From a virus (Duplodnaviria > Heunggongvirae > Uroviricota > Caudoviricetes): a DNA stretch of 40,422 nt. The notes beneath the pieces are model-generated. The model searched no databases and had not been told where the DNA came from. It saw only the letters and a list, made by a program, of their open reading frames with translations. The translations under genes were made by a program, and so were the position numbers. Each line of letters begins with the position of its first letter. Within the stretch, counting starts at the first letter, position 1. Location: IMG/VR virus record IMGVR_UViG_2563366920_000004. One strand, given 5' to 3'. Shown in pieces: positions 3,183 through 35,631 of this stretch.

Positions 3183-3573
3183 CGTCTTTTCTCCCCGGAA
3201 TTAACTCGCGTGGATTATCGGAACGGTGATAGAGCCATATACCAATACGCACAGCGACAATTGCTGACACGAATGCGCCTGCAGAGAAAACAATCCCTTT
3301 TTCAAAAGAGTCCTGCGTGATGGTAGGGATCAGGCTAGCTATGCCGATAAGAATTGATGCTGCTGGTTTGTAAAAGAGAAGGCCGCAAAGAAAGCTGAGC
3401 ATCGACAGGAGCACCCGGCGACGGATGGGGTACTCTACTGCAGAGGTAACAAAAATCACCGCCCCAGCCAAAGCCCCTAAAGCAACCTCCGGAGGGACAC
3501 CTGCAATAACCGCAGCAAGAGAACCAAAACTAAGCAACTGATTTAATTGCTCACTTGTTACTTGAGCAGACAT
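3169..3573 (-). CDS. holin-like membrane protein
   Basis: 134 aa, several hydrophobic helices, charged C-terminal tail; AGGAG RBS 6 nt upstream; first gene of lysis cassette. Confidence 0.55.
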   Translation of the reverse strand: MSAQVTSEQLNQLLSFGSLAAVIAGVPPEVALGALAGAVIFVTSAVEYPIRRRVLLSMLSFLCGLLFYKPAASILIGIASLIPTITQDSFEKGIVFSAGAFVSAIVAVRIGIWLYHRSDNPRELIPGRKDDGNA

Positions 3574-3879: not shown

Positions 3880-6800
3880 TTAACGTTCTTCCAGAGACTG
3901 AATCCGCTCTTTTATCTTATCCATTTCTCTGCGCTGCCATGCTGCCTCGATATAGAATAAGAGATCAGGTCTGACCCCCCATCTAGATCCTGCTGGCGTT
4001 ATTTCAACGCGCTCAATGATGTCTTCCATTACCATCACTGGATTATCATCCTCATCAACAATGATGCTCCCGTCATTATCAGTCAGCGGAATTTCCCTTT
4101 GGCCAGTAATGACGTCATCATATACTGCGGGATAATCGTCATAGCAAAGAAAGGCATAGCGGCATGTTGTGCTTTCTTCTTCCATGAGTCCGTGAGAAAT
4201 AAGAACATCACGAAGTTGCTGCGCGATTACACCATGATGTATCCTCGCCCCTTCTTCTCCCTTTATAGCGACAGCGTTCAGCCATTTATAAGCGATATAC
4301 CTGACGTCACCCCAGGCATCCAGCAATGCTTCGTCAGGAGAGACCGGCTCTGTCTTTAATGTTCCGTCACTGGTAACCACAGGATTGGAGCCAAGATAAA
4401 CTGTCGAGAACCTGTTTCCCGGACCACCAAGAGCATTTACATTATCAAGATAAGGTTTAACATCTCCGTTCTCAAAAAGATGTTCGAGTGCGTTATATAC
4501 CGCGCGACGTGGAGTACTGCTTCTGGAACCATGCAACGTTATCATTGCACCATCTGCTGAAGACGTTGTTTCACCGCCGCTAACGATTAATCTCTGAGCG
4601 GTAACATCATCAGACGGTACTTTCTTCGCAATAATGGCGTAATTACCCTCAAGTTTGACTTCCGCGCGAACTTGTCCTGATGTACCTGCATGGACAGTCA
4701 GTGACTGGACGGCAACATCATCTGTGAAATCAACGGGTACAGGAACCGTCCTCACGCCTGACGTCGACATAAAAGTAGGAAGCGTTCTGTTAGGAGTGGC
4801 TCCGTAGACAAAATCCCTTGAAACAAATTCTTCCTGTTTAATTTTCACCCTGAAACAATACAAATCAGCCGGGTGACCATCGTGAACATAAGGATATTTT
4901 CTGTTGTTATCCCCTATGCTCCATGGGTTTAGAAAGTCTTCCCCACCGAAAATGTAGTACAGCCAGTTGTCTTTGATACAAACTGAACCAACACCAACCG
5001 CAGAGTTAACTATTCCGCCCTGATAAATCTGATCAGTAACATTAACCCACTCTACATTATCCAGACTCCACTCATTGACGTTAACTCTGGTCATAAATGT
5101 TCTTGGATAGTTTCCTGCATAACGGTTATCAGGTTCTCCTCCTTCCCACTCACCAAATGCGCGCTCACTGCCAAAAATAATCAGCTCATCGCCAACTTTG
5201 GCAAAAGGAAGGTTTGAGTGATGAACATTATTTGGGAAGCGAAGAGAATTCCATGATGTACCTAAATCAGAGCTTCTGTGCAATGAACTACCGGGTTGAG
5301 TACTTAATGTCCCCCTGGTCGTCAGATACAGAATGCCATCATAATATTTTACACATGGCTCAGATGCATTCGCCTCATATTCTGCAGGTATGCGTCTGCG
5401 AACAAAGCTACCAGGAGAACCGAAAGCATCAGAGAAATAGAGTATCCCAAGCTCGCGTGGACCAATATCACCATTATGGTAGCCAACAGCAAAACTGTTA
5501 TCGCTAATCGTCGCAAAACTGTGAATCTCAGTAACAGGAGTGCTTCCGTCAACAAAAGAAGGAATAGTTCCAAGACTGGTTTTTCTCCATGGTGACGAGT
5601 GAAATGATGTACCAAAACTCCAGTATCTACCCTCGTTATTCTGATCCACATCCTGGGTATTTTGCGTCGTAACTGTAAAAGTATTTTTATCAATAACAGT
5701 AGTCACCGTCATATTCCCGGTAACACCTGTAACACCAGAGTTTGAGAAGTTGACAAAATCACCAGCAAATAATCCGTGATCAGTAATGCGAATATAAGCG
5801 ACTTGCTGATTTGCTGCTTTCGTTATACCACCATAAACGCGAAGGCTGCGACTCATTGGGCGATCCCACAACTCTGCAACCTGCAGTTTATTTCCGCTCA
5901 CGGTCCGCGTCTCAATTACAGCAAAAAGGCGATTTCTGACAACCCCCATACTCATGCAGTGATAGTTAACTGTGGGATAGTTTTCATGTAAATCTGTAAG
6001 CCATTCCGGCGTTGTCCAGGTCTTCCCGTCATCTCCTGAGCGAACCCATGCAACATGGAGGTTATTTACACCATGGCGGTCTCCAGCCATAAAAGGCGCA
6101 TAGATGACATTGTCATATACAAACGTTTTATCCTGCGTCCAGGCGTTGTACCACGGTGTATCTGTAATTTTAAATAACTCTCCCTGGATAAAATCTTCAG
6201 AAGCATAAAAAAGAGGCTGACCCGGTATTCTCTCAAATAAAAAACGAGCATTTTTAAATCGGCTGACATCCGGAAGAGTTGATACTTTAAAAGTAAGCCC
6301 TAATCCGTCAATTTTATAACCTGGAGATGAGGCTTCAAGGCACGCGCTTATTGCAGTGGAATCGTCATTTATACCATCACCAACAGCTCCAAAATCTTTG
6401 GGGCTAATAGCATCACGCATTTTATCCTGGAACGTTCGGTACACAGCCCCAGAACCATACTGAATAAACCAACCAAAACCACCAACAACCCCGGCGATTG
6501 CAGCATCGACATAATTACGCATTGAGCGATTATTTACAGCGTCCTGTTCAAGTGATGGATCTGCAAGGTTAGAAATTTTGTTTTGCTTTGCATCGTAATA
6601 TTTTGCAAGCAAAGATGGTTTCATCAATGCACGTCTGAACCACCCAAAACATTGCTGGATCAGCATCGTCAGGTAGTCAAAAGCATCTTCATGCACTTCG
6701 GGGAAAAATTTTCCCTGATTGCGAAGGTCTGTCTCCTGCACTACATCAAGCACACGATCTATCGTAATTCGCCATCCAGTAGCAAGCGGCGACGGAAGAA

Positions 6801-6999
6801 CCACAGAACCGCCACTATAAGTTCCCGCCCCAGTTACCGTATAACCGGTATCCAGTACTAGTTCTGTTACGTTACCGTTAAGGTCAGACACCTGAACAAC
6901 CAGGTCGGATTTTTTGAAAATACGGAAGGTATACGGAAATGATGTCGTAACGCCGTTACCAGTGTATTCGTTGTGGTCAACTTCGGTTGAGACCGTCAT
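3880..6999 (-). CDS. tailspike / tail fiber with T7 gp17-like N-terminal adaptor domain, sialidase-like Asp-box motifs and C-terminal intramolecular chaperone (S74-like) domain; putative endosialidase
   Basis: N-terminal ~120 aa follow the T7 tail-fiber N-domain pattern; two Asp-box-like motifs (RSGDDGKTW, SSDLGTSW); C-terminal ~150 aa resemble self-cleaving chaperone domains (TSDGTLK ... IHHGVIAQQL). Confidence 0.75.
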   Translation of the reverse strand: MTVSTEVDHNEYTGNGVTTSFPYTFRIFKKSDLVVQVSDLNGNVTELVLDTGYTVTGAGTYSGGSVVLPSPLATGWRITIDRVLDVVQETDLRNQGKFFPEVHEDAFDYLTMLIQQCFGWFRRALMKPSLLAKYYDAKQNKISNLADPSLEQDAVNNRSMRNYVDAAIAGVVGGFGWFIQYGSGAVYRTFQDKMRDAISPKDFGAVGDGINDDSTAISACLEASSPGYKIDGLGLTFKVSTLPDVSRFKNARFLFERIPGQPLFYASEDFIQGELFKITDTPWYNAWTQDKTFVYDNVIYAPFMAGDRHGVNNLHVAWVRSGDDGKTWTTPEWLTDLHENYPTVNYHCMSMGVVRNRLFAVIETRTVSGNKLQVAELWDRPMSRSLRVYGGITKAANQQVAYIRITDHGLFAGDFVNFSNSGVTGVTGNMTVTTVIDKNTFTVTTQNTQDVDQNNEGRYWSFGTSFHSSPWRKTSLGTIPSFVDGSTPVTEIHSFATISDNSFAVGYHNGDIGPRELGILYFSDAFGSPGSFVRRRIPAEYEANASEPCVKYYDGILYLTTRGTLSTQPGSSLHRSSDLGTSWNSLRFPNNVHHSNLPFAKVGDELIIFGSERAFGEWEGGEPDNRYAGNYPRTFMTRVNVNEWSLDNVEWVNVTDQIYQGGIVNSAVGVGSVCIKDNWLYYIFGGEDFLNPWSIGDNNRKYPYVHDGHPADLYCFRVKIKQEEFVSRDFVYGATPNRTLPTFMSTSGVRTVPVPVDFTDDVAVQSLTVHAGTSGQVRAEVKLEGNYAIIAKKVPSDDVTAQRLIVSGGETTSSADGAMITLHGSRSSTPRRAVYNALEHLFENGDVKPYLDNVNALGGPGNRFSTVYLGSNPVVTSDGTLKTEPVSPDEALLDAWGDVRYIAYKWLNAVAIKGEEGARIHHGVIAQQLRDVLISHGLMEEESTTCRYAFLCYDDYPAVYDDVITGQREIPLTDNDGSIIVDEDDNPVMVMEDIIERVEITPAGSRWGVRPDLLFYIEAAWQRREMDKIKERIQSLEER

Positions 7000-7102
7000 G
7001 TTAAATCTCCAGATAGTCGCAGCACCCGTTGCGCCGCATATCTGGTTATTCTATTACCTGAAAAACCACATATGGATAGAAAGACTGTGAATACGAATAG
7101 AT

Positions 7103-7119
7103 ATTACCTTTCGGGTAAT
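7103..7119. promoter_or_regulatory. operator-like palindrome ATTACC-TTTCG-GGTAAT
   Basis: Perfect TTACC-N5-GGTAA inverted repeat in the divergent region between the tailspike start and the SOS-box gene. Confidence 0.6.
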
Positions 7120-7155
7120 TTGCAAAACGTGCTGGATAGCAAACAAATTATTTGA

Positions 7156-7175
7156 TACTGTATAAATATACAGTT
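7156..7175. promoter_or_regulatory. LexA (SOS) box TACTGTATAAATATACAGTT
   Basis: CTGT-N8-ACAG core with an AT-rich spacer, close to the E. coli LexA consensus; about 20 bp upstream of the ATG at 7195. Confidence 0.7.
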
Positions 7176-7194
7176 ATTGCATGGAGAAGATAAG

Positions 7195-7452
7195 ATGCAG
7201 CAGTATCACTATCCACTGGAAGACGGATTTACCGAAAGGATTCACACGCCGGGAGGCGTCAGATCACTGGTGGAGGGATCGCACTTGATGAAATTACTCC
7301 GGGATCTCGATAAGGATGGATTTAATGTCGATGGCCCACTTGCCGAACTGACTGCACTGATTAACTACGTCACCAGCTCACAGATGTCTATGCAGGATCT
7401 GCAAACACATCTCGACTATTGTGCCGAACAATTACGAAAACAAACCACATAA
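7195..7452 (+). CDS. small antirepressor-like protein (paralog of the Bro-N antirepressor C-terminal domain)
   Basis: ATG at 7195 with GGAG RBS 8 nt upstream (track ORF begins at a TTG at 7177); C-terminus LMKLLRDLDKDGFNVDGPLAELTALINYVTSSQMSMQDLQTHLDY aligns with the C-terminus of 8598..9290. Confidence 0.65.
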   Translation: MQQYHYPLEDGFTERIHTPGGVRSLVEGSHLMKLLRDLDKDGFNVDGPLAELTALINYVTSSQMSMQDLQTHLDYCAEQLRKQTT

Positions 7453-7490
7453 AGAAAAGGCCGCTCTAGCGGCCTATCGTTTCGCTTTGT
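7451..7490. terminator. bidirectional intrinsic terminator
   Basis: GGCCGC-TCTA-GCGGCC hairpin with A-run upstream and T-rich tract downstream, between convergent genes 7195..7452 (+) and 7474..8202 (-). Confidence 0.55.
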
Positions 7491-8202
7491 GCTCGTCCCA
7501 GCACGTTTTGCACCATGCCATTAAGCCGTCCGCATTTTGATTATTAGGGTAAAAGCTAGTTCGTTTTCTGCGGACATTACAAATTGGGCACCACTTCATA
7601 TGGCGTGTATTCTTTGGGCCATCGAGACACCTTGCACACCACTTAGTCAATCCATCTGGATTTTTTGACGATTTCCTGAATTTTTCATATGGAAGGTTTA
7701 TTCTGCATCGCAAGCACTGCTTGCTACCACTTGAAACTCTGTTAGCTGATTCTTCTTTTGGCGGCGATACAGAAGGTATTCTTGCTGGCTCTGATACTGC
7801 CTGAGGTGCTTTTTTAGATGACTGAGACGATATGTCATCACCAGGGAATCTTCCATGATATGCCGGACGCGTTGACACTCCGGGTGGAAGCTCAGCTGTA
7901 AACGGCTTTGGCTGAATCAGTTGCCTCTCTTTTGCTAACTCCTGCTGTTTATAATATGTCTGGATTACCGCGCTATCATAAGCAGGAGGTACGGAAATAT
8001 TAGGCGCATTATCTCCCGTTTTTTGAAACTGAGTGGAGGTGTGTTCTATCACCTGTGTACGATTAATCGTTATCTCCCCATCTTCAGTCTTTATCGTTTT
8101 GTTATGATTAACGACCGTACGATCAGAGATCTTAGTCTTGTTCTGGTTGATAACGTAAATAATCACCGCAACCACACCAACAACTACCCAGAAAACTTCC
8201 AT
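7474..8202 (-). CDS. membrane-anchored protein with C-terminal tandem CxxC zinc-ribbon repeats, unknown function
   Basis: N-terminal transmembrane helix (VFWVVVGVVAVIIYVI), long Pro/Ser-rich linker, C-terminal duplicated motif C-x2-C ... DGL-x2-WC-x2-C; GAGGAAAGG RBS before ATG. Confidence 0.6.
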   Translation of the reverse strand: MEVFWVVVGVVAVIIYVINQNKTKISDRTVVNHNKTIKTEDGEITINRTQVIEHTSTQFQKTGDNAPNISVPPAYDSAVIQTYYKQQELAKERQLIQPKPFTAELPPGVSTRPAYHGRFPGDDISSQSSKKAPQAVSEPARIPSVSPPKEESANRVSSGSKQCLRCRINLPYEKFRKSSKNPDGLTKWCARCLDGPKNTRHMKWCPICNVRRKRTSFYPNNQNADGLMAWCKTCWDEHKAKR

Positions 8203-8222
8203 TGCCTTTCCTCACAATAACA

Positions 8223-8237
8223 TTACCTTAAAGGTAA
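8223..8237. promoter_or_regulatory. operator-like palindrome TTACC-TTAAA-GGTAA
   Basis: Perfect palindrome 21 bp upstream of the 7474..8202 start codon, in the divergent region shared with the Bro-N gene. Confidence 0.6.
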
Positions 8238-8315
8238 TATCTTGCTTTCAGGTGATCAAGCGTTAAACGCAATCAACCAAATACGGTTGATTTTAATATT
8301 TCTTCGCGTTTATCA

Positions 8316-8330
8316 TTACCTTTGCGGTAA
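8316..8330. promoter_or_regulatory. operator-like palindrome TTACC-TTTGC-GGTAA
   Basis: Second perfect copy in the same divergent region. Confidence 0.6.
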
Positions 8331-8424
8331 ATTTACATCGCACTCCTCTTGTGCCATAGTAATCGGGCACTGGCAAAATCCAGTGCCGGGATTGGTCTCC
8401 CGGATTACTACAGAGGCACATATG

Positions 8425-8443
8425 CCGCATAAGCGGTTTTTTT
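8425..8443 (+). terminator. intrinsic terminator-like hairpin plus T7 run inside the Bro-N gene leader
   Basis: CCGC-ATAA-GCGG followed by TTTTTTT; preceded by two further GC hairpins (about 8365-8403); lies about 155 bp upstream of the Bro-N start. Confidence 0.45.
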
Positions 8444-8597
8444 ATGTGTAAAGCGCACCTATTCTATGGTGGGCTGTGTGGGGGCACCGAAAGGTGCGCC
8501 GGGTTCCTTTGTAGCCGGTAAGACCAACTCTGCACAGTTCACCACCATCTGATTGGTCTCAGCGGTGGTGATTAACCTAACTACAAAGGTGATCGCC

Positions 8598-9290
8598 ATG
8601 AATACCAAACCTTCCATCTTTTCCTTTGAGTCATCCTGCCAGATCCGTATGTTCATGATTGACGGAGAACCTTGGTTTGTCACCAAAGATGTGTGCAATG
8701 CTTTGAATATTGATGTTACACAAGCGAGAAAACTTGATAAAAAAGGCTGGAACAAAAAGGGGCTGTATTCAATACAGACCCCTGGTGGAATACAAGAACT
8801 ATCCATCGTTTCAGAATCAGGTCTCTACATCCTTATTCTGCGTTGCAAAGAGGCAATGACTGAGGGAACGAGAGCATTCAGATTTCTTGAATGGGTTACA
8901 GGTGAGGTTCTTCCTCAGATCCGCCGCACCGGAAGTTACATTAAAAACTCGCTCCCGCAGGAAGAACGCATAAAGATGGTTGCCGACCAGGTAGCCAACG
9001 CCACAGCATCAGCAGTGATGCAGGCAATGAAGATAGAGAACAAAACCTACAGTGCCCCGCTGAAGCCCGGCTACCGCAGCCTGATTCATTCTCCGTCTGG
9101 TGTTCTCGGCCTGACGGAGAACTCATTGCTTATGAATCTGCTAAACCAGTTACAGGAAGACGGGCACGACGTATCGGGCGCGGCGGCGGAGCTGACCACC
9201 ATGTTCTGCTACATCGTCGGTGTGAGCAAATGCCTGCGTGATATCCAGACGCACGCGGAGTACATCAACGACAAGGCAGGGTTCTTCTGA
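8598..9290 (+). CDS. Bro-N domain antirepressor
   Basis: Start set at internal Met (MNTKPSIFSFESSCQIRMFMIDGEPWFVTKDVCNALNI...) of track ORF 8553..9290, with AAGGTGA RBS; N-terminal Bro-N pattern; C-terminal domain paralogous to 7195..7452. Confidence 0.75.
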   Translation: MNTKPSIFSFESSCQIRMFMIDGEPWFVTKDVCNALNIDVTQARKLDKKGWNKKGLYSIQTPGGIQELSIVSESGLYILILRCKEAMTEGTRAFRFLEWVTGEVLPQIRRTGSYIKNSLPQEERIKMVADQVANATASAVMQAMKIENKTYSAPLKPGYRSLIHSPSGVLGLTENSLLMNLLNQLQEDGHDVSGAAAELTTMFCYIVGVSKCLRDIQTHAEYINDKAGFF

Positions 9291-9297
9291 CGGCGGC

Positions 9298-9320
9298 GGC
9301 ACAGGGATGTGCCTTTAAAT
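9298..9320 (+). terminator. intrinsic terminator after the Bro-N gene
   Basis: GGCACA-GGGA-TGTGCC hairpin followed by TTTAAATAATT. Confidence 0.45.
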
Positions 9321-9361
9321 AATTCTGTACGATTGCAGACCGGGGGGTGAATAGAGTACTA

Positions 9362-9376
9362 TTACCTTACGGGTGA
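9362..9376. promoter_or_regulatory. operator-like palindrome, one mismatch (TTACC-TTACG-GGTGA)
   Basis: Imperfect copy of the TTACC-N5-GGTAA motif immediately downstream of a possible -10 (TACTAT). Confidence 0.45.
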
Positions 9377-9413
9377 TCCATAGCGATTAGGCACCGATAC
9401 AGGAGGAGCCCAC

Positions 9414-9446
9414 ATGAGAAAATTTGACGAGTACGAAGGCGTTTAA
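9414..9446 (+). other. 10-codon leader ORF (MRKFDEYEGV) with strong RBS
   Basis: AGGAGGAG 5 nt upstream of ATG; ORF ends 19 nt before a GC-rich terminator hairpin that directly precedes the 9506 gene. Confidence 0.35.
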
Positions 9447-9464
9447 CATTCGGATAGTTTAATG

Positions 9465-9487
9465 ACGGGGCCATTAGGCCCCGTTTT
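9465..9487 (+). terminator. leader terminator/attenuator hairpin
   Basis: ACGGGGCC-ATTA-GGCCCCGT (8-bp GC stem) followed by TTTC; ends about 19 nt before the GTG start at 9506. Confidence 0.5.
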
Positions 9488-9505
9488 CATGTCTGGAGAC
9501 AGTTT

Positions 9506-10045
9506 GTGTTAAGTGAAGAAATGCAATTTGCCATGGCTGTGGCTCAAATCGTAAGTGCAGTCGCGGTTTCGCTTGGCTTGTTCATAGCTATCGCTACTAT
9601 TATTTATAATGTAAATACAGCGAGAAAAGTACACACTTCAGTATTCCTTGGTGAAAGCAGGTTTGATGTAGATTATAAGAAAGGCCTATCTACTATGCGC
9701 CGCATTCACGAGTCGAACAAATCATTCCGCTCTTATATGTATCCAAGCAATGGGCAGGCTGATCTTACGGATGAAGAAAAGATAGAGAAGAGAGAAATAA
9801 TTTACTGTCTAGGTTTCTACGAACGCATGGCTGTGAGCGTGAAGCGGAAAACTTATGATGAGACCATGATTAAGGAAGTATTTTACAGCTCCGTTGTAAA
9901 TAACTATCAGATTGCGCTACCTCTTATACAAGCTATTAGAGAAAAAGAAAACATAAACACATATTTTAAAGAATATGAATGGTTGGCCACACGATGGAAG
10001 GATTGTCCATTGAAGGATAAATCCCCGTGGTACAAGTTTTGGTAA
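9506..10045 (+). CDS. single-pass membrane protein of unknown function (candidate superinfection-exclusion/abortive-infection moron)
   Basis: GTG start with GGAG RBS 7 nt upstream; N-terminal transmembrane helix (AVAQIVSAVAVSLGLFIAIATIIY) then ~140-aa soluble domain; visibly AT-rich; strong terminator immediately downstream. Confidence 0.6.
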   Translation: MLSEEMQFAMAVAQIVSAVAVSLGLFIAIATIIYNVNTARKVHTSVFLGESRFDVDYKKGLSTMRRIHESNKSFRSYMYPSNGQADLTDEEKIEKREIIYCLGFYERMAVSVKRKTYDETMIKEVFYSSVVNNYQIALPLIQAIREKENINTYFKEYEWLATRWKDCPLKDKSPWYKFW

Positions 10046-26334: not shown

Positions 26335-26424
26335 ATCAATGACTCCGTACGCAATTAAATTATTACCAATTTAACCACATATGATTTATTTATCGTAGAC
26401 AGTTGACATTTAACGCGCGAATTA

Positions 26425-26439
26425 TTACCTTTCAGGTAA
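26425..26439. promoter_or_regulatory. operator-like palindrome TTACC-TTTCA-GGTAA
   Basis: Perfect palindrome just downstream of a TTGACA hexamer, upstream of the portal operon. Confidence 0.6.
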
Positions 26440-26761
26440 CCAAAGAGTTCATTCCGGTTACTAACCTGACTGGCTTGTCGTTAAATTGAACAGGTGGAGT
26501 GAGCTTTTATTTTGAGCAGTACGGCGTATGGCACATGCGCCGATAGCGGTCTGGATGCGTTTAAGGGGCACCCTCCCTGGCTGTGGCAAACGAACCAGGT
26601 AGCCGGAATGTGCAAGTCGAGCGGTTTTATTCCGCGCACGGGGATTCACCATCCCGGCGATTCGGTGTGACGCCTCGGAAGAGACGAGGGTACAACGATG
26701 AGAGCATTTATGGAGCCGCGACAAAGTGTGGCGCCTTAACAGGCTAAGTGCTCTCAGCGTT

Positions 26762-26838
26762 GTGGCATTAGCTCAGTTGGACAGAGCAACCGCCTTCTAA
26801 GCGGTTGGTCGCAGGTTCGAATCCTGCATGCCACGCCA
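26762..26838 (+). tRNA. tRNA-Arg (anticodon UCU), phage-encoded
   Basis: Cloverleaf traced by hand: 7-bp acceptor stem GTGGCAT/ATGCCAC, D-arm GCTC/GAGC, anticodon stem ACCGC/GCGGT with loop CTTCTAA, T-arm GCAGG-TTCGAAT-CCTGC, discriminator G and encoded CCA. Confidence 0.85.
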
Positions 26839-28977: not shown

Positions 28978-29570
28978 TGATTACCATCCTGACGTTCTTT
29001 GAGTCGCTTCCTGGCTGCCGCTATGCGATCAGCAATTGTCACATTCACATTAACATCCAGTCGTTCTTTGAATGCGTTGACGTCGACGTGCTTACCAATC
29101 AGTTCGAGGTTCTTCACCTTGTCAGGCCATTTAATTTTTTTGAGGATTGTCTCTATCGAATCCTCGTTCATGTTCATGATGGTCGATGACAGATCAAAGC
29201 CGCTAAGCGTAGTGCGCCAGATTTTCGGCCACTCGCGGATTGGCTTAAGGCTCCCATCGTCGTTGAGGATATCAATCACGTCCATCTGGTCGATCTCCAC
29301 CAGGCGCATGAGAACGTAATCAGCACTGACGCGCATTCGTTTGTTGCGCTCCTCCATCAACTCGGCAATCCGTTTCTGAATGCGTTCATCGCGCATCATG
29401 ACACTGGCTTTAACTGCCGCTGTATTTGGGGAGAATCCTGCATTAATCGCAGCCTGAGTCTGGTTTTCAGGCGTTTTGATGTATGACTGGCAATAAGCCT
29501 CCTGCATTGCTGTTAGTGGCTTAAATTGCGTTGATTTGCGTTTATAGGCTTTAGGTTCAGCAGGCATCAT
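28974..29570 (-). CDS. terminase small subunit
   Basis: Start moved to internal Met-27 (MMPAEPKAYKRK...) of track ORF 28974..29648; the track's TTG-initiated N-terminal extension covers a non-coding operator palindrome. Confidence 0.6.
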   Translation of the reverse strand: MMPAEPKAYKRKSTQFKPLTAMQEAYCQSYIKTPENQTQAAINAGFSPNTAAVKASVMMRDERIQKRIAELMEERNKRMRVSADYVLMRLVEIDQMDVIDILNDDGSLKPIREWPKIWRTTLSGFDLSSTIMNMNEDSIETILKKIKWPDKVKNLELIGKHVDVNAFKERLDVNVNVTIADRIAAARKRLKERQDGNQ

Positions 29571-29586
29571 AACCACCGTGGTAATA

Positions 29587-29601
29587 GTTACCGTTGTGGT
29601 A
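29587..29601. promoter_or_regulatory. operator-like palindrome TTACC-GTTGT-GGTAA
   Basis: Perfect palindrome within a direct repeat of TGGTAATAGT, about 17 bp upstream of the proposed terS start. Confidence 0.55.
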
Positions 29602-29644
29602 ATAGTAACATGCAAAATAAAGCCGCCATAGTTGGCGGCAGTAT

Positions 29645-32316: not shown

Positions 32317-32319
32317 GAT

Positions 32320-32334
32320 TTACCTCTGAGGTAA
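32320..32334. promoter_or_regulatory. operator-like palindrome TTACC-TCTGA-GGTAA overlapping the RBS of the nuclease gene
   Basis: Perfect palindrome ending 4 nt upstream of the 32316 start codon. Confidence 0.55.
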
Positions 32335-32381
32335 TTAAAAACCACATAAGACACGAAATCAATAGAGTTTAGAATATTTTG

Positions 32382-32396
32382 TTACCCAACAGGTAA
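32382..32396. promoter_or_regulatory. operator-like palindrome GTTACC-CAACA-GGTAAC
   Basis: Perfect 17-bp palindrome about 65 bp upstream of the nuclease gene. Confidence 0.55.
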
Positions 32397-32433
32397 CTAT
32401 CAAGACATAAAAAAATGCGCTATCGCGCTGGTA

Positions 32434-34205: not shown

Positions 34206-34283
34206 TTTTTCCGCCCCTTTTTGTTATTGATATTGGCTATTTTGCACAATTGGAAAATTTGATCAACCAGATTTGGTTTTTTA

Positions 34284-34298
34284 TTACCTTTGAGGTAC
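34284..34298. promoter_or_regulatory. operator-like palindrome, one mismatch (TTACC-TTTGA-GGTAC)
   Basis: About 80 bp upstream of the 33993..34205 start. Confidence 0.4.
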
Positions 34299-34353
34299 GA
34301 ATAGATATGAAAAGACCGCCGGATGGCGGTCTACAGAGGGTTGTGGATGGATA

Positions 34354-34584: not shown

Positions 34585-34620
34585 AGCTATTGCCTGATAT
34601 TTATTTCAGATAATAAATAT

Positions 34621-34683
34621 TCACCCATAAGGTAACAAAAATCAAGGATAGTTACCTATGAGGTGCATTTACCTGTTGGGTAA
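34621..34683. promoter_or_regulatory. right-operator-like cluster of three palindromes between Cro-like and repressor genes
   Basis: TCACC-CATAA-GGTAA (34621..34635), TTACC-TATGA-GGTGC (34652..34666) and TTACC-TGTTG-GGTAA (34669..34683) in the 154-bp divergent intergenic region. Confidence 0.65.
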
Positions 34684-34738
34684 TATTGCTTTAAATTGAA
34701 TCATCTACTGATTCATATATGAGGCGATTTTCCAGAAA

Positions 34739-35323
34739 ATGAAAAGTATCCAGGACGTCCGCAGGCAAAATCTCAACGACTTGATCGACCGTGAATTCAA
34801 TGGTGTTCAGACGCGGATGGCAGAAAAACTTGGAACTCAGGCAAATCTGGTAAACCGCTGGGCTCTTGGCAAGAAGGTTATCGGCGACCAGGTTGCGCGA
34901 AAAATTGAAGCTGCCGCCAATAAACCCCGTAACTGGCTTGATATCGATCGCTCGCTTTCTCAGGAAGGTTTTCAGCCTGTCGGACCAAGCGACATTGGTC
35001 AACTGGCGGCTCACAACCTGGAACGCTGGATGAGCGAAAGCCGCGACCTTTCAACACAGGGAAAACTTCACCGTGCATCCGGCGTCGCCCAGGTGACAAT
35101 CAGCCGCCTGTTAAACAATGAGGTCAGCGTTTCCATTTCCACCCTGGAGAATGTTGCATCCGCATTCGGGCGTCACGGCTATGAATTACTGATTCACCCG
35201 CACGACCCTGCGACCATCAACTATGACCGCTCGCGCTACGCATTGTTACCCGAAACCGAGAAAGCAAAGATCGAAAGTTACATTGAATTTGTCATCAACC
35301 AGAACGAAAAAAACAAACAATAA
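34739..35323 (+). CDS. immunity repressor with two tandem XRE-type HTH domains and no S24 peptidase domain
   Basis: 194 aa; HTH-like segments QTRMAEKLGTQANLVNRWALGKK and ASGVAQVTISRLLNNEVSVSISTLENVASAFG; no Ala-Gly/Ser-Lys autocleavage signature; GAGGCG RBS. Confidence 0.7.
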   Translation: MKSIQDVRRQNLNDLIDREFNGVQTRMAEKLGTQANLVNRWALGKKVIGDQVARKIEAAANKPRNWLDIDRSLSQEGFQPVGPSDIGQLAAHNLERWMSESRDLSTQGKLHRASGVAQVTISRLLNNEVSVSISTLENVASAFGRHGYELLIHPHDPATINYDRSRYALLPETEKAKIESYIEFVINQNEKNKQ

Positions 35324-35367: not shown

Positions 35368-35380
35368 ATTGCCTGTTCGA

Positions 35381-35457
35381 TTACCTAATAGGTAATTTTT
35401 TCAACTCATATCTATTGACATCAAACCAGATACGCATAATTATTACCTCAACGGTAA
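35381..35457. promoter_or_regulatory. left-operator-like pair flanking a TTGACA promoter for the early-left operon
   Basis: TTACC-TAATA-GGTAA (35381..35395) and TTACC-TCAAC-GGTAA (35443..35457) on either side of TTGACA (35415..35420) and an AT-rich -10 region. Confidence 0.65.
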
Positions 35458-35631
35458 CAGACCGAGATAACAAGTTATGCAGTGGAAAATCATCAACGGT
35501 TGGTACTGCGTTACTGCATGCGGATTCATGAGCTGGAAATTCCGCACCTTACAGGAAGGCATTAAGTGGGCTTTCGTCAGCAAAGAAGCTCGCGATGTGG
35601 CCAACGATAACGAGATATGGGAGGGCTGATA

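Follow-up and report, generated by a model that had tools for sequence, protein, structure and literature searches.

A probable P1/P7-type secondary immunity cassette with IsrK and c4 RNAs ahead of a Bro-N/Ant antirepressor gene in an epsilon15/phiV10-like temperate podophage

The mechanism of the c4 antisense RNA has been known since 1990, when Citron and Schuster reportedly described the immI operon of phages P1 and P7 with its c4 RNA, icd and ant1/ant2. The P1/P7 c4 RNA is said to be freed by RNase P and to repress translation of its target (Biere and colleagues, 1992; Hartmann and colleagues, 1995), and a Rep/Ant antirepression system of Salmonella phage SPC32H was reportedly described by Kim and Ryu in 2013. 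The curated P1 record (NC_005856) gives the order C1 operator Oc4, two promoters, a1, b1, c4, a2, b2, icd and ant1/ant2. In Salmonella Gifsy-1, IsrK is detected on Northern blots and boosts translation of the downstream antirepressor more than 100-fold in trans (PMC4825925); Salmonella IsrK is the only one demonstrated to bind Hfq and to accumulate as a separate small RNA (PMC2330248, PMC4825925). Here we analyze a Bro-N protein gene and its 395-bp leader, which runs from the start codon of a divergent gene to the Bro-N ATG at 8598 (8203-8597), within a 40,422-nt stretch of Caudoviricetes DNA (IMG/VR record IMGVR_UViG_2563366920_000004; hereafter the window). We estimate the probability at roughly 85% that the region forms a secondary immunity (“immI”) cassette of the P1/P7 type, carried by a temperate podophage resembling epsilon15 and phiV10.

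Judged by sequence, the source phage is an epsilon15/phiV10-like (Uetakevirus) temperate podophage: the 2.6 kb around the Bro-N locus is 91-98% identical to Escherichia phages TL-2011b, EC.W1-9, ZX5 and phiV10, relatives that belong to the genus Uetakevirus (epsilon15-like temperate podophages). A first-pass annotation of the leader had listed two operator palindromes, two GC-rich hairpins, a hairpin with a T7 run about 155 bp before the start codon and further inverted repeats, and had proposed a regulatory RNA over an antirepressor gene. Reading the sequence directly, we found all of these features at their coordinates, and above-threshold Rfam matches to IsrK and to the C4 antisense RNA bear out the regulatory RNA. 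Its interpretation as a whole is partly supported. The leader is a known RNA cassette, IsrK followed by c4 as in P1/P7, and represents a new example with no new mechanism; its central element is the c4 antisense RNA, which had been entered among the “further inverted repeats”.

The c4 antisense RNA (RF01695), which is tRNA-like, occupies 8462-8549 on the plus strand, where the full-length model (positions 1-87) matches with 78.6 bits against an Rfam threshold of 45, and it consists of a 17-bp closing stem and two hairpins. Its minimum-energy fold is the family structure (-43.6 kcal/mol, z = -4.5). Pair counts and compensatory changes were computed on an alignment (A1) of 74 diverse homologous sequences, with slid controls, which gave 18-49% pairing overall. 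In the c4 fold, 98.5% of cells are paired and 20 of the 27 pairs show compensatory changes, against 35-49% pairing in its slid controls. The b' box (CCUUUGUAG, 8506-8514, plus strand) forms the loop of c4 hairpin 2, and the a' box (AGACCAA, 8521-8527, plus strand) lies in the single-stranded junction. Downstream on the same strand are their exact complements, the target boxes a2 (UUGGUCU, 8553-8559) and b2 (CUACAAAGG, 8581-8589), the latter including the Shine-Dalgarno sequence AAAGG (8585-8589), 8 nt ahead of the ATG at 8598. The a':a2 helix is 99.2% paired and co-varies at four of seven positions (slid controls, 18-40%). The predicted duplex between the c4 core and the mRNA leader reaches -27.3 kcal/mol, compared with -14.3 ± 3.2 for shuffled sequences, none of 1000 being as low. 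The inverted repeat GCGCACC (8453-8459)/GGTGCGC (8493-8499) picked out by the first-pass annotation is present, but its upstream arm is not kept in relatives and we discounted it as a functional helix on that ground; its downstream arm is the 3' half of c4 hairpin 1.

Upstream of c4, an IsrK-family small RNA (RF01394) of 77 nt lies at 8367-8443 on the plus strand, scoring 74.7 bits in a scan of the whole window against an Rfam gathering threshold of 50. It comprises two hairpins, which are the two GC-rich hairpins at 8367-8386 and 8387-8402, and a rho-independent terminator with its stem at 8424-8437 and its T run at 8437-8443, 154 nt from the ATG, which was picked up by a terminator scan too. 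The predicted fold contains all three family hairpins (z = -2.7). IsrK carries its own copies of the target boxes on the plus strand, a1 (UUGGUCU, 8392-8398) in the loop of hairpin 2 and b1 (CUACAGAGG, 8408-8416), which forms one G-U pair with b'; the predicted duplex between the c4 core and IsrK reaches -29.1 kcal/mol, and none of 1000 shuffled targets (-14 to -17 ± 3) attained that value. A short transcript of about 8340-8443 ending at the T7 run had been proposed from the sequence, and it coincides with IsrK. Position 1 of the Rfam isrK model aligns at 8367, so that a transcription start near this position is implied by the model. A promoter-like site lies ahead of it at 8332-8360 on the plus strand, with a -35 element TTTACA (8332-8337), a 17-nt spacer and a TG-extended -10 element CATAGT (8355-8360), matching the consensus at 9 of 12 positions in a promoter scan. 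The c4-a1b1 model RF03163 matches 8354-8406 with 39.9 bits, under its threshold of 46.7. Other Rfam families searched over 7000-9600 at a permissive threshold gave chance-level matches only (lysM-TM7 and a CRISPR direct repeat, E 2-3), and a tRNA/tmRNA search with ARAGORN found none in the leader, its sole match being a tRNA-Arg (anticodon UCU, 26762-26838) among the structural genes.

The inverted repeat ACCACC/GGTGGT, likewise noted earlier, proved to be part of a second, conserved helix that co-varies in other phages. An alternative hairpin (8539-8571) can arise when the 3' half of the c4 closing stem (UCACCACC, 8539-8546) pairs instead with a downstream arm on the same strand (GGUGGUGA, 8564-8571); it shows a2 in its loop and is possible only in the unprocessed read-through transcript. 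This hairpin is 93.2% paired, with compensatory changes at five of eight pairs. In the minimum-energy fold of the read-through RNA 8367-8610 (z = -5.2), the alternative hairpin occurs together with cis pairing of a1 with a' and of b1 with b'. The predicted fold resembles the translationally inactive “structure A”, for which there is experimental proof at the Gifsy-1 isrK locus, and the alternative hairpin probably belongs to that known inactive structure. P1 has a counterpart, CCUGCCACC/GGUAGCAGG (P1 locus L092, 3412-3441), for which we found no description of an alternative a2-loop hairpin in the literature.

The cassette precedes a gene for a fusion protein of 230 residues (8598-9290, plus strand), with a Bro-N domain at residues 16-106 and an Ant-like domain at residues 149-225 (nt 9042-9272), hereafter Bro-N/Ant. 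The Bro-N assignment is firm (PF02498, E 1.8e-13, 51.4 bits against a cut-off of 25.6 in Pfam); the protein matches PHROG 130, “anti-repressor Ant”, and residues 147-228 match PHROG 450 (E 3.2e-37). Residues 149-225 align to residues 3-79, nearly the full chain, of chain E in PDB 5D50 (E 9.1e-14), in which SPC32H Ant is co-crystallized with its repressor Rep. The window holds a second protein of this kind, an 85-residue product encoded at 7195-7452 on the plus strand (module 7103-7452). It is 88% identical to the SPC32H gene product annotated “ant”, its residues 2-85 match 5D50 chain E with E 1.3e-47, and it matches PHROG 450 with E 1.4e-47; by this homology the small protein is the orthologue of SPC32H Ant. 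The SOS control that had been suggested for it stands, as its gene carries a LexA box (TACTGTATAAATATACAGTT, 7156-7175) that is unique in the window. The supposed paralogy between this protein and the Bro-N C-terminus is real (residues 149-222 against residues 2-75, 42% identity, E 8e-20) and extends over about 75 residues, not the 60 first given; as both match SPC32H Ant in 5D50, the idea of one putative repressor-binding domain in two differently controlled proteins is upheld at the level of homology. Comparisons with SPC32H were drawn from GenBank and PDB annotations and from citing papers.

In SPC32H, tetrameric Ant dismantles the Rep tetramer (PMC9638917), and by homology the C-terminal domain of Bro-N/Ant should bind and inactivate Rep. 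The alternative is that the protein does not act on its own Rep and is instead a DNA-binding factor, or one directed at the host or at competitors, with the Ant-like part as an oligomerization module. In favor of this, the Bro-N domain is a DNA-binding module whose role is unclear, identity between the C-terminal domain and the small Ant is just 42%, and the tetrameric state of SPC32H Ant means that the shared domain could serve assembly (PMC9638917). Against this stands ORF4 of phage ZX5, which is 81% identical to Bro-N/Ant overall and identical in the C-terminal half: when it was overexpressed, lysogens fell 1000-fold (1e9 to 1e6) and transcription of the repressor fell by 75% (PMC9782041). 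In addition, the Ant-like domain is about 98% conserved among Escherichia coli relatives with an identical Rep, compared with 61-76% identity for the Bro-N part, and c4 cassettes precede antirepressors in P1, Stx phages and Gifsy-1. We therefore consider a role other than antirepression of Rep unlikely.

Epsilon15 and SPC32H have only the small Ant and no neighboring IsrK or c4, and on this comparison the RNA-gated Bro-N/Ant is a module added in the coliphage branch. In a comparison of the coliphage branch with the Salmonella branch, the small Ant keeps 85-88% identity and the operator half-sites are unchanged, yet Rep is only about 42% identical; from these alignments Ant and the DNA-recognition surface seem far more constrained than the rest of Rep. 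In phiV10 (L001, 4204-4442), a frameshift splits the Ant-like domain between gp23 (194 residues) and a 29-residue “gp22”, which accounts for the low identity of ORF4 to phiV10 ORF23 in the ZX5 paper; either the phiV10 antirepressor is truncated or the record contains a sequencing error.

The repressor side of the system is encoded elsewhere in the window. The rep gene (34739-35323, plus strand) specifies a 194-residue protein with two helix-turn-helix regions, matching SPC32H Rep (PDB 5D50 chain A) with E 4e-42; Pfam finds helix-turn-helix domains only and no S24 peptidase (autocleavage) domain. Rep is 100% identical in the window, phiV10, ZX5, phiv142-3 and EC.W1-9. The divergent cro-like gene and rep are separated by a stretch with three OR sites (34620-34684), and beyond rep, at the leftward promoter, are two OL sites (35380-35396 and 35442-35458). 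The motif ATTACC-N5-GGTAAT, with up to two mismatches, occurs 15 times in the window against 1.24 expected, a number reached in none of 100 shuffles. Both operator palindromes of the leader are of this type. The first, a perfect palindrome (ATTACCTTAAAGGTAAT, 8222-8238), precedes the divergent start codon (8202) by 20-36 bp and stands at -145 relative to the start of IsrK; the second (ATTACCTTTGCGGTAAA, 8315-8331) occupies -52 to -36 and abuts the -35 element of the predicted IsrK/c4/ant promoter. The position of the second is kept in all uetakevirus variants examined and in Klebsiella relatives, with conserved half-sites and a variable spacer. A further predicted operator (7103-7119) upstream of the small LexA-controlled gene abuts TTGCAA, and the epsilon15 GenBank record labels its homologous 17-bp site as a repressor binding site. 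Because the same motif is found at OR/OL and carries this annotation in epsilon15, we conclude from sequence that both leader palindromes are putative operators of the main prophage repressor Rep, like Oc4 in P1. By analogy, Rep likely represses the IsrK/c4/ant promoter.

Relatives of the Bro-N protein are encoded in 81 viral contigs, every one of which has the leader, and IsrK and c4 occur in tandem in Stx phages, SfV, APSE, a Moraxella phage, a Klebsiella phage and others. Adding distant units gathered by an IsrK-anchored pattern search to these contigs, we pooled 211 IsrK-c4 units (142 unique), of which 124 could be parsed for their a and b boxes. In 109 of the 124, a1 equals a2 and both are exact complements of a'. 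The parsed units fall into about 11 a types, among them UUGGCGU, UUGGUCU, UUGGAAC, UUGAGAC and UUGACAG, and contain about 59 distinct b' variants, each with its own matching b1 and b2. The longest complementary run between b' and b2 averages 8.85 nt in cognate and 6.28 nt in non-cognate combinations, that between b' and b1 7.76 and 5.28 nt, and in most units b2 ends 4-11 nt ahead of the start codon. The window is of type a = UCU, b = CUACAAAGG, and phiV10 of type a = CGU, b = CUAAAAGG; further b types in uetakevirus relatives include CUAAGUGG and GUCACAGG, and recombinant relatives join the a box of one type to the b box of another. One close relative (L006) has a second IsrK-c4 unit at 4972-5095 on the minus strand with a different b box (CUAAGUGG), and another (L056) a third Ant-like coding region at 4296-4547, also on the minus strand, 94% identical to the Bro-N C-terminal domain. 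These extras suggest a second, convergent IsrK-c4-Bro-N/Ant module, with which a single phage would have three Ant-domain proteins.

Sequence, family models and covariation establish the identities of the two RNAs, the complementarity and covariation of their boxes, the position of b2 over the Shine-Dalgarno sequence and the Rep/Ant homologies, and a mechanism can be proposed from them with the help of P1/P7 and Gifsy-1. A single promoter beside a Rep operator would drive IsrK, then c4, then the antirepressor mRNA. By analogy with both systems, transcription would start near 8367 and most transcripts would end at 8443 as IsrK, with the read-through RNA yielding c4, for whose release P1 uses RNase P. 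As in P1/P7, c4 would pair through a' and b' with a2 and b2 and block ribosome binding on the Bro-N/Ant mRNA; with no icd-like leader reading frame present, this repression would be direct. IsrK, with its copies of these boxes, is predicted in silico to bind c4 no less strongly than the mRNA leader does, and so could titrate c4 or refold the read-through RNA, turning on translation of Bro-N/Ant, which would then inactivate Rep. The phage would thus possess two Rep antagonists, the small Ant released through LexA and the SOS response upon DNA damage, and Bro-N/Ant released through an RNA specificity code. The a/b code differs among relatives whose Rep is identical, and the cassette is probably what makes otherwise homoimmune phages heteroimmune, in analogy to P1 and P7: a phage with a different code would escape the resident c4, express its antirepressor and overcome the identical repressor.

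Gifsy-1 genetics speaks for this proposal: there, G28A and G31A activate and map to the equivalent of a1, and C162U and C159U, which suppress them, map to that of a' (PMC4825925). Several points count against our proposal. The Gifsy-1 authors credit refolding of the long mRNA, coupled to “orf45”, and not titration of c4 (PMC4825925), and orf45 is not conserved here, where the corresponding frame has 28 codons, stops 45 nt before the ATG and is broken in relatives by indels in the loop. The leader operator is centered at about -44, upstream of the -35 element and not on the core promoter, a placement from which Rep may repress or even stimulate the promoter. The promoter scan as a whole is not enriched (6 sites found against 5.0 expected from shuffles), and the promoter and its start site are predictions, as are IsrK termination efficiency and c4 processing. 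Binding of Rep by the Bro-N/Ant C-terminus is likewise read from its 42% identity to the small Ant.

Two narrower views of the leader have also to be weighed. In one, it is only a cis-acting attenuator, whose T7 terminator limits read-through with no trans-acting RNA. A good intrinsic terminator (8424-8443) does lie between the promoter and the Bro-N gene, and read-through in Gifsy-1 is limited to some of the transcripts (PMC4825925); yet an attenuator alone leaves unexplained a c4 fold in which most pairs are compensatory, as well as the three-way covariation of boxes lying in loops and over the Shine-Dalgarno sequence, and IsrK activates translation in trans in Gifsy-1 (PMC4825925). We regard this view as very unlikely.

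In the other, to which we give equally little credence, small proteins of the leader matter, either an orf45/icd-like peptide over c4 or a 69-residue open reading frame (8242-8451). Gifsy-1 orf45 overlaps the c4-equivalent RNA and has been reported to be translationally coupled to anrP (PMC4825925), an AUG at 8466 opens the 28-codon frame here, and coding sequences are annotated over c4 in other records, such as “ash family protein” in ZX5 and orf34 in VT2-Sakai. However, the 8466 frame stops at 8550-8552, too far ahead of the ant ATG for coupling to be likely; single-nucleotide indels in the b' loop shift it between close relatives; substitutions over c4 keep base pairs, not codons; and the AUG lacks a preceding Shine-Dalgarno sequence and sits within the c4 closing stem. 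On the frame-shifting indels, the pair-preserving substitutions and the missing Shine-Dalgarno sequence we rejected coding potential over c4. The coding sequences annotated directly over c4 in ZX5 (L213, 1642-1755), VT2-Sakai (L087, 1263-1436) and a Klebsiella phage (L084, 1323-1520), under names such as “ash family protein” and “hypothetical protein”, are probably mis-annotations.

The region is flanked by the tailspike gene (3880-6999, minus strand) on one side and by genes for large internal virion proteins (from 10991, minus strand) on the other, and P22 immI occupies the equivalent place, between the tailspike and injection-protein genes. The P22 sar RNA comes from opposite-strand transcription through the ant leader, and a likeness to sar had been suggested for the present leader; it fails, since IsrK and c4 lie on the strand of their target and no Rfam sar match was found at E <= 10. 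That the palindromes serve a dedicated Mnt/Arc-type repressor with a sar-like opposite-strand RNA, as in P22 immI, is extremely improbable: the shared genomic place and a weak, below-threshold Pfam match of the antirepressor to P22_AR_N (E 0.004) speak for it, but the neighbors, searched with Pfam, PHROGs and NCBIfam, include no arc- or mnt-like gene, which led us to reject such a secondary repressor, the palindrome motif is identical to that at OR/OL beside rep, the sar search covered 7000-9600, and the promoter scan gave no promoter-like site on the minus strand of the leader.

Within the P1/P7-type interpretation, a more far-reaching version can be offered tentatively, and we hold it to be possible rather than probable. 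Among E. coli uetakeviruses whose repressor is one and the same, a combinatorial a/b RNA “barcode” may define many mutually heteroimmune types, the ratio of IsrK to c4 may act as an SOS-independent trigger, and Bro-N/Ant might co-assemble with the small Ant. The a and b boxes would recombine independently while being kept matched in IsrK, c4 and mRNA, and a burst from the promoter would give more terminated IsrK than c4, titrate the stable c4 pool and fire the second antirepressor. If so, the cassette would be a phage-against-phage weapon and a superinfection sensor, beyond a back-up immunity lock.

Several further features surround the cassette. A gene on the minus strand (7474-8202), inserted between the small ant and the IsrK promoter and absent from phiV10, has its own predicted Rep operator (8222-8238) and encodes a 242-residue protein (PHROG 6762; weak endonuclease VII/Lar-like matches) that has a membrane helix at its N-terminus and two zinc-ribbon-like, Cys-rich repeats at its C-terminal end. 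In the window, the small ant and the IsrK promoter are parted by this divergent gene and by a hairpin terminator (7458-7475). In phiV10-type relatives (L056, L077, L001), about 60 bp, lacking any obvious terminator, separate the end of the small ant from the IsrK promoter, so that LexA-controlled transcription could enter the IsrK-c4-ant cassette. A palindrome with 8-bp arms, AATCAACC-N6-GGTTGATT, lies at 8271-8292. After the Bro-N gene, a fourth Rep-type palindrome (9361-9377) is followed by a mini-reading frame of 10 codons (9414-9446) whose Shine-Dalgarno sequence is strong, by a hairpin resembling a terminator (9465-9487) and, at 9506-10045, by a DUF4760 gene; the interval 9361-10045 may be a Rep-controlled moron with a leader peptide. 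Outlying operator-like palindromes with up to two mismatches occur at 3214, 14401, 26424-26440, 29569-29603, 32319-32397 and 34283-34299, including a tandem pair (29569/29587) at the start of the small-terminase gene and a pair (32319/32381) upstream of a resolvase-like gene. By analogy, this scatter recalls the dispersed C1 operators of P1.

Much of what the locus contains is already known, namely both Rfam RNA families, the cassette ahead of a BRO-N gene (in APSE) and the SPC32H small Ant/Rep pair. No paper among those searched links uetakeviruses with c4 or IsrK. The assignment corrects the annotation of a region labeled “hypothetical protein”, “ash family protein” or “putative anti-immunity protein” in public records, and the many relatives with an identical repressor and differing a/b boxes form a natural series for studying c4 specificity, heteroimmunity and prophage cross-induction. 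It is thus useful for annotation and as a natural test series, and will come as no surprise to a specialist.

Compared with P1/P7 immI, the order of primary-repressor operator, promoter, a1, b1, c4, a2, b2 and antirepressor is the same, the c4 RNAs belong to the same family (RF01695) and b2 lies at the ribosome-binding site of the first reading frame. P1 also shares the alternative helix of the c4 3' strand with a segment after a2 and a terminator-like hairpin after b1, and in P1/P7, as here, relatives share a repressor yet differ in their a/b boxes. In contrast, P1 has icd, a leader frame whose translation c4 targets directly and on which ant transcription depends, whereas here no open reading frame lies between c4 and the Bro-N ATG and b2 covers the Shine-Dalgarno sequence of the antirepressor itself. 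Ant1/2 are unrelated to the Bro-N/Ant antirepressor, and a tblastn search with each half of the Bro-N protein returned nothing from the P1 immI locus (L092) at E <= 1e-3. C1 reads an asymmetric site and the SPC32H-type Rep of the window a palindrome, and P1 is a plasmid prophage whereas the phage of the window is an integrating podovirus.

The Gifsy-1 isrK-STnc1160(orf45)-anrP locus (Hershko-Shalev et al. 2016, PMC4825925) has a terminated IsrK, a processed stable RNA and an antirepressor on one strand, and alternative read-through folds in which mid-IsrK pairs with downstream RNA, a type to which the fold predicted here belongs. Its model differs in making orf45 the means of translational coupling, its antirepressor AnrP works on a lambdoid prophage and induces the AntQ antiterminator, and the c4 a/b framework was not used in that paper. 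In APSE phages of Hamiltonella (Rouil et al. 2020, bioRxiv 10.1101/2020.03.17.996009; LR794147), IsrK and c4 likewise lie directly upstream of a BRO-N gene, whose upstream region is matched by a' and b'. APSE differs in phage genus and in its a/b boxes, no LexA-controlled paralogue is described there, and its BRO-N protein gave no tblastn match to either the Bro-N or the Ant-like half of the protein in the window. P22 sar/ant shares the principle of a small RNA limiting an antirepressor encoded between tailspike and injection genes; sar, however, is a true cis-antisense RNA of another family, and IsrK and c4 would act through short a/b loop complementarities as in P1/P7.

With the SPC32H Rep/Ant pair (PDB 5D50), the window shares a LexA-boxed Ant and a homologous Rep without an autocleavage domain, and the operator half-sites are those of the epsilon15 record. 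SPC32H and epsilon15 differ in having the small Ant only, at one Ant-like place per genome, and neither IsrK nor c4 was found in the 6-kb neighborhood of their small Ant. Epsilon15/phiV10-like coliphages of the kind analyzed here thus join a LexA-gated Ant of the SPC32H type and an RNA-gated antirepressor of the P1 type in one locus, directed, on the homologies described, at the same repressor.

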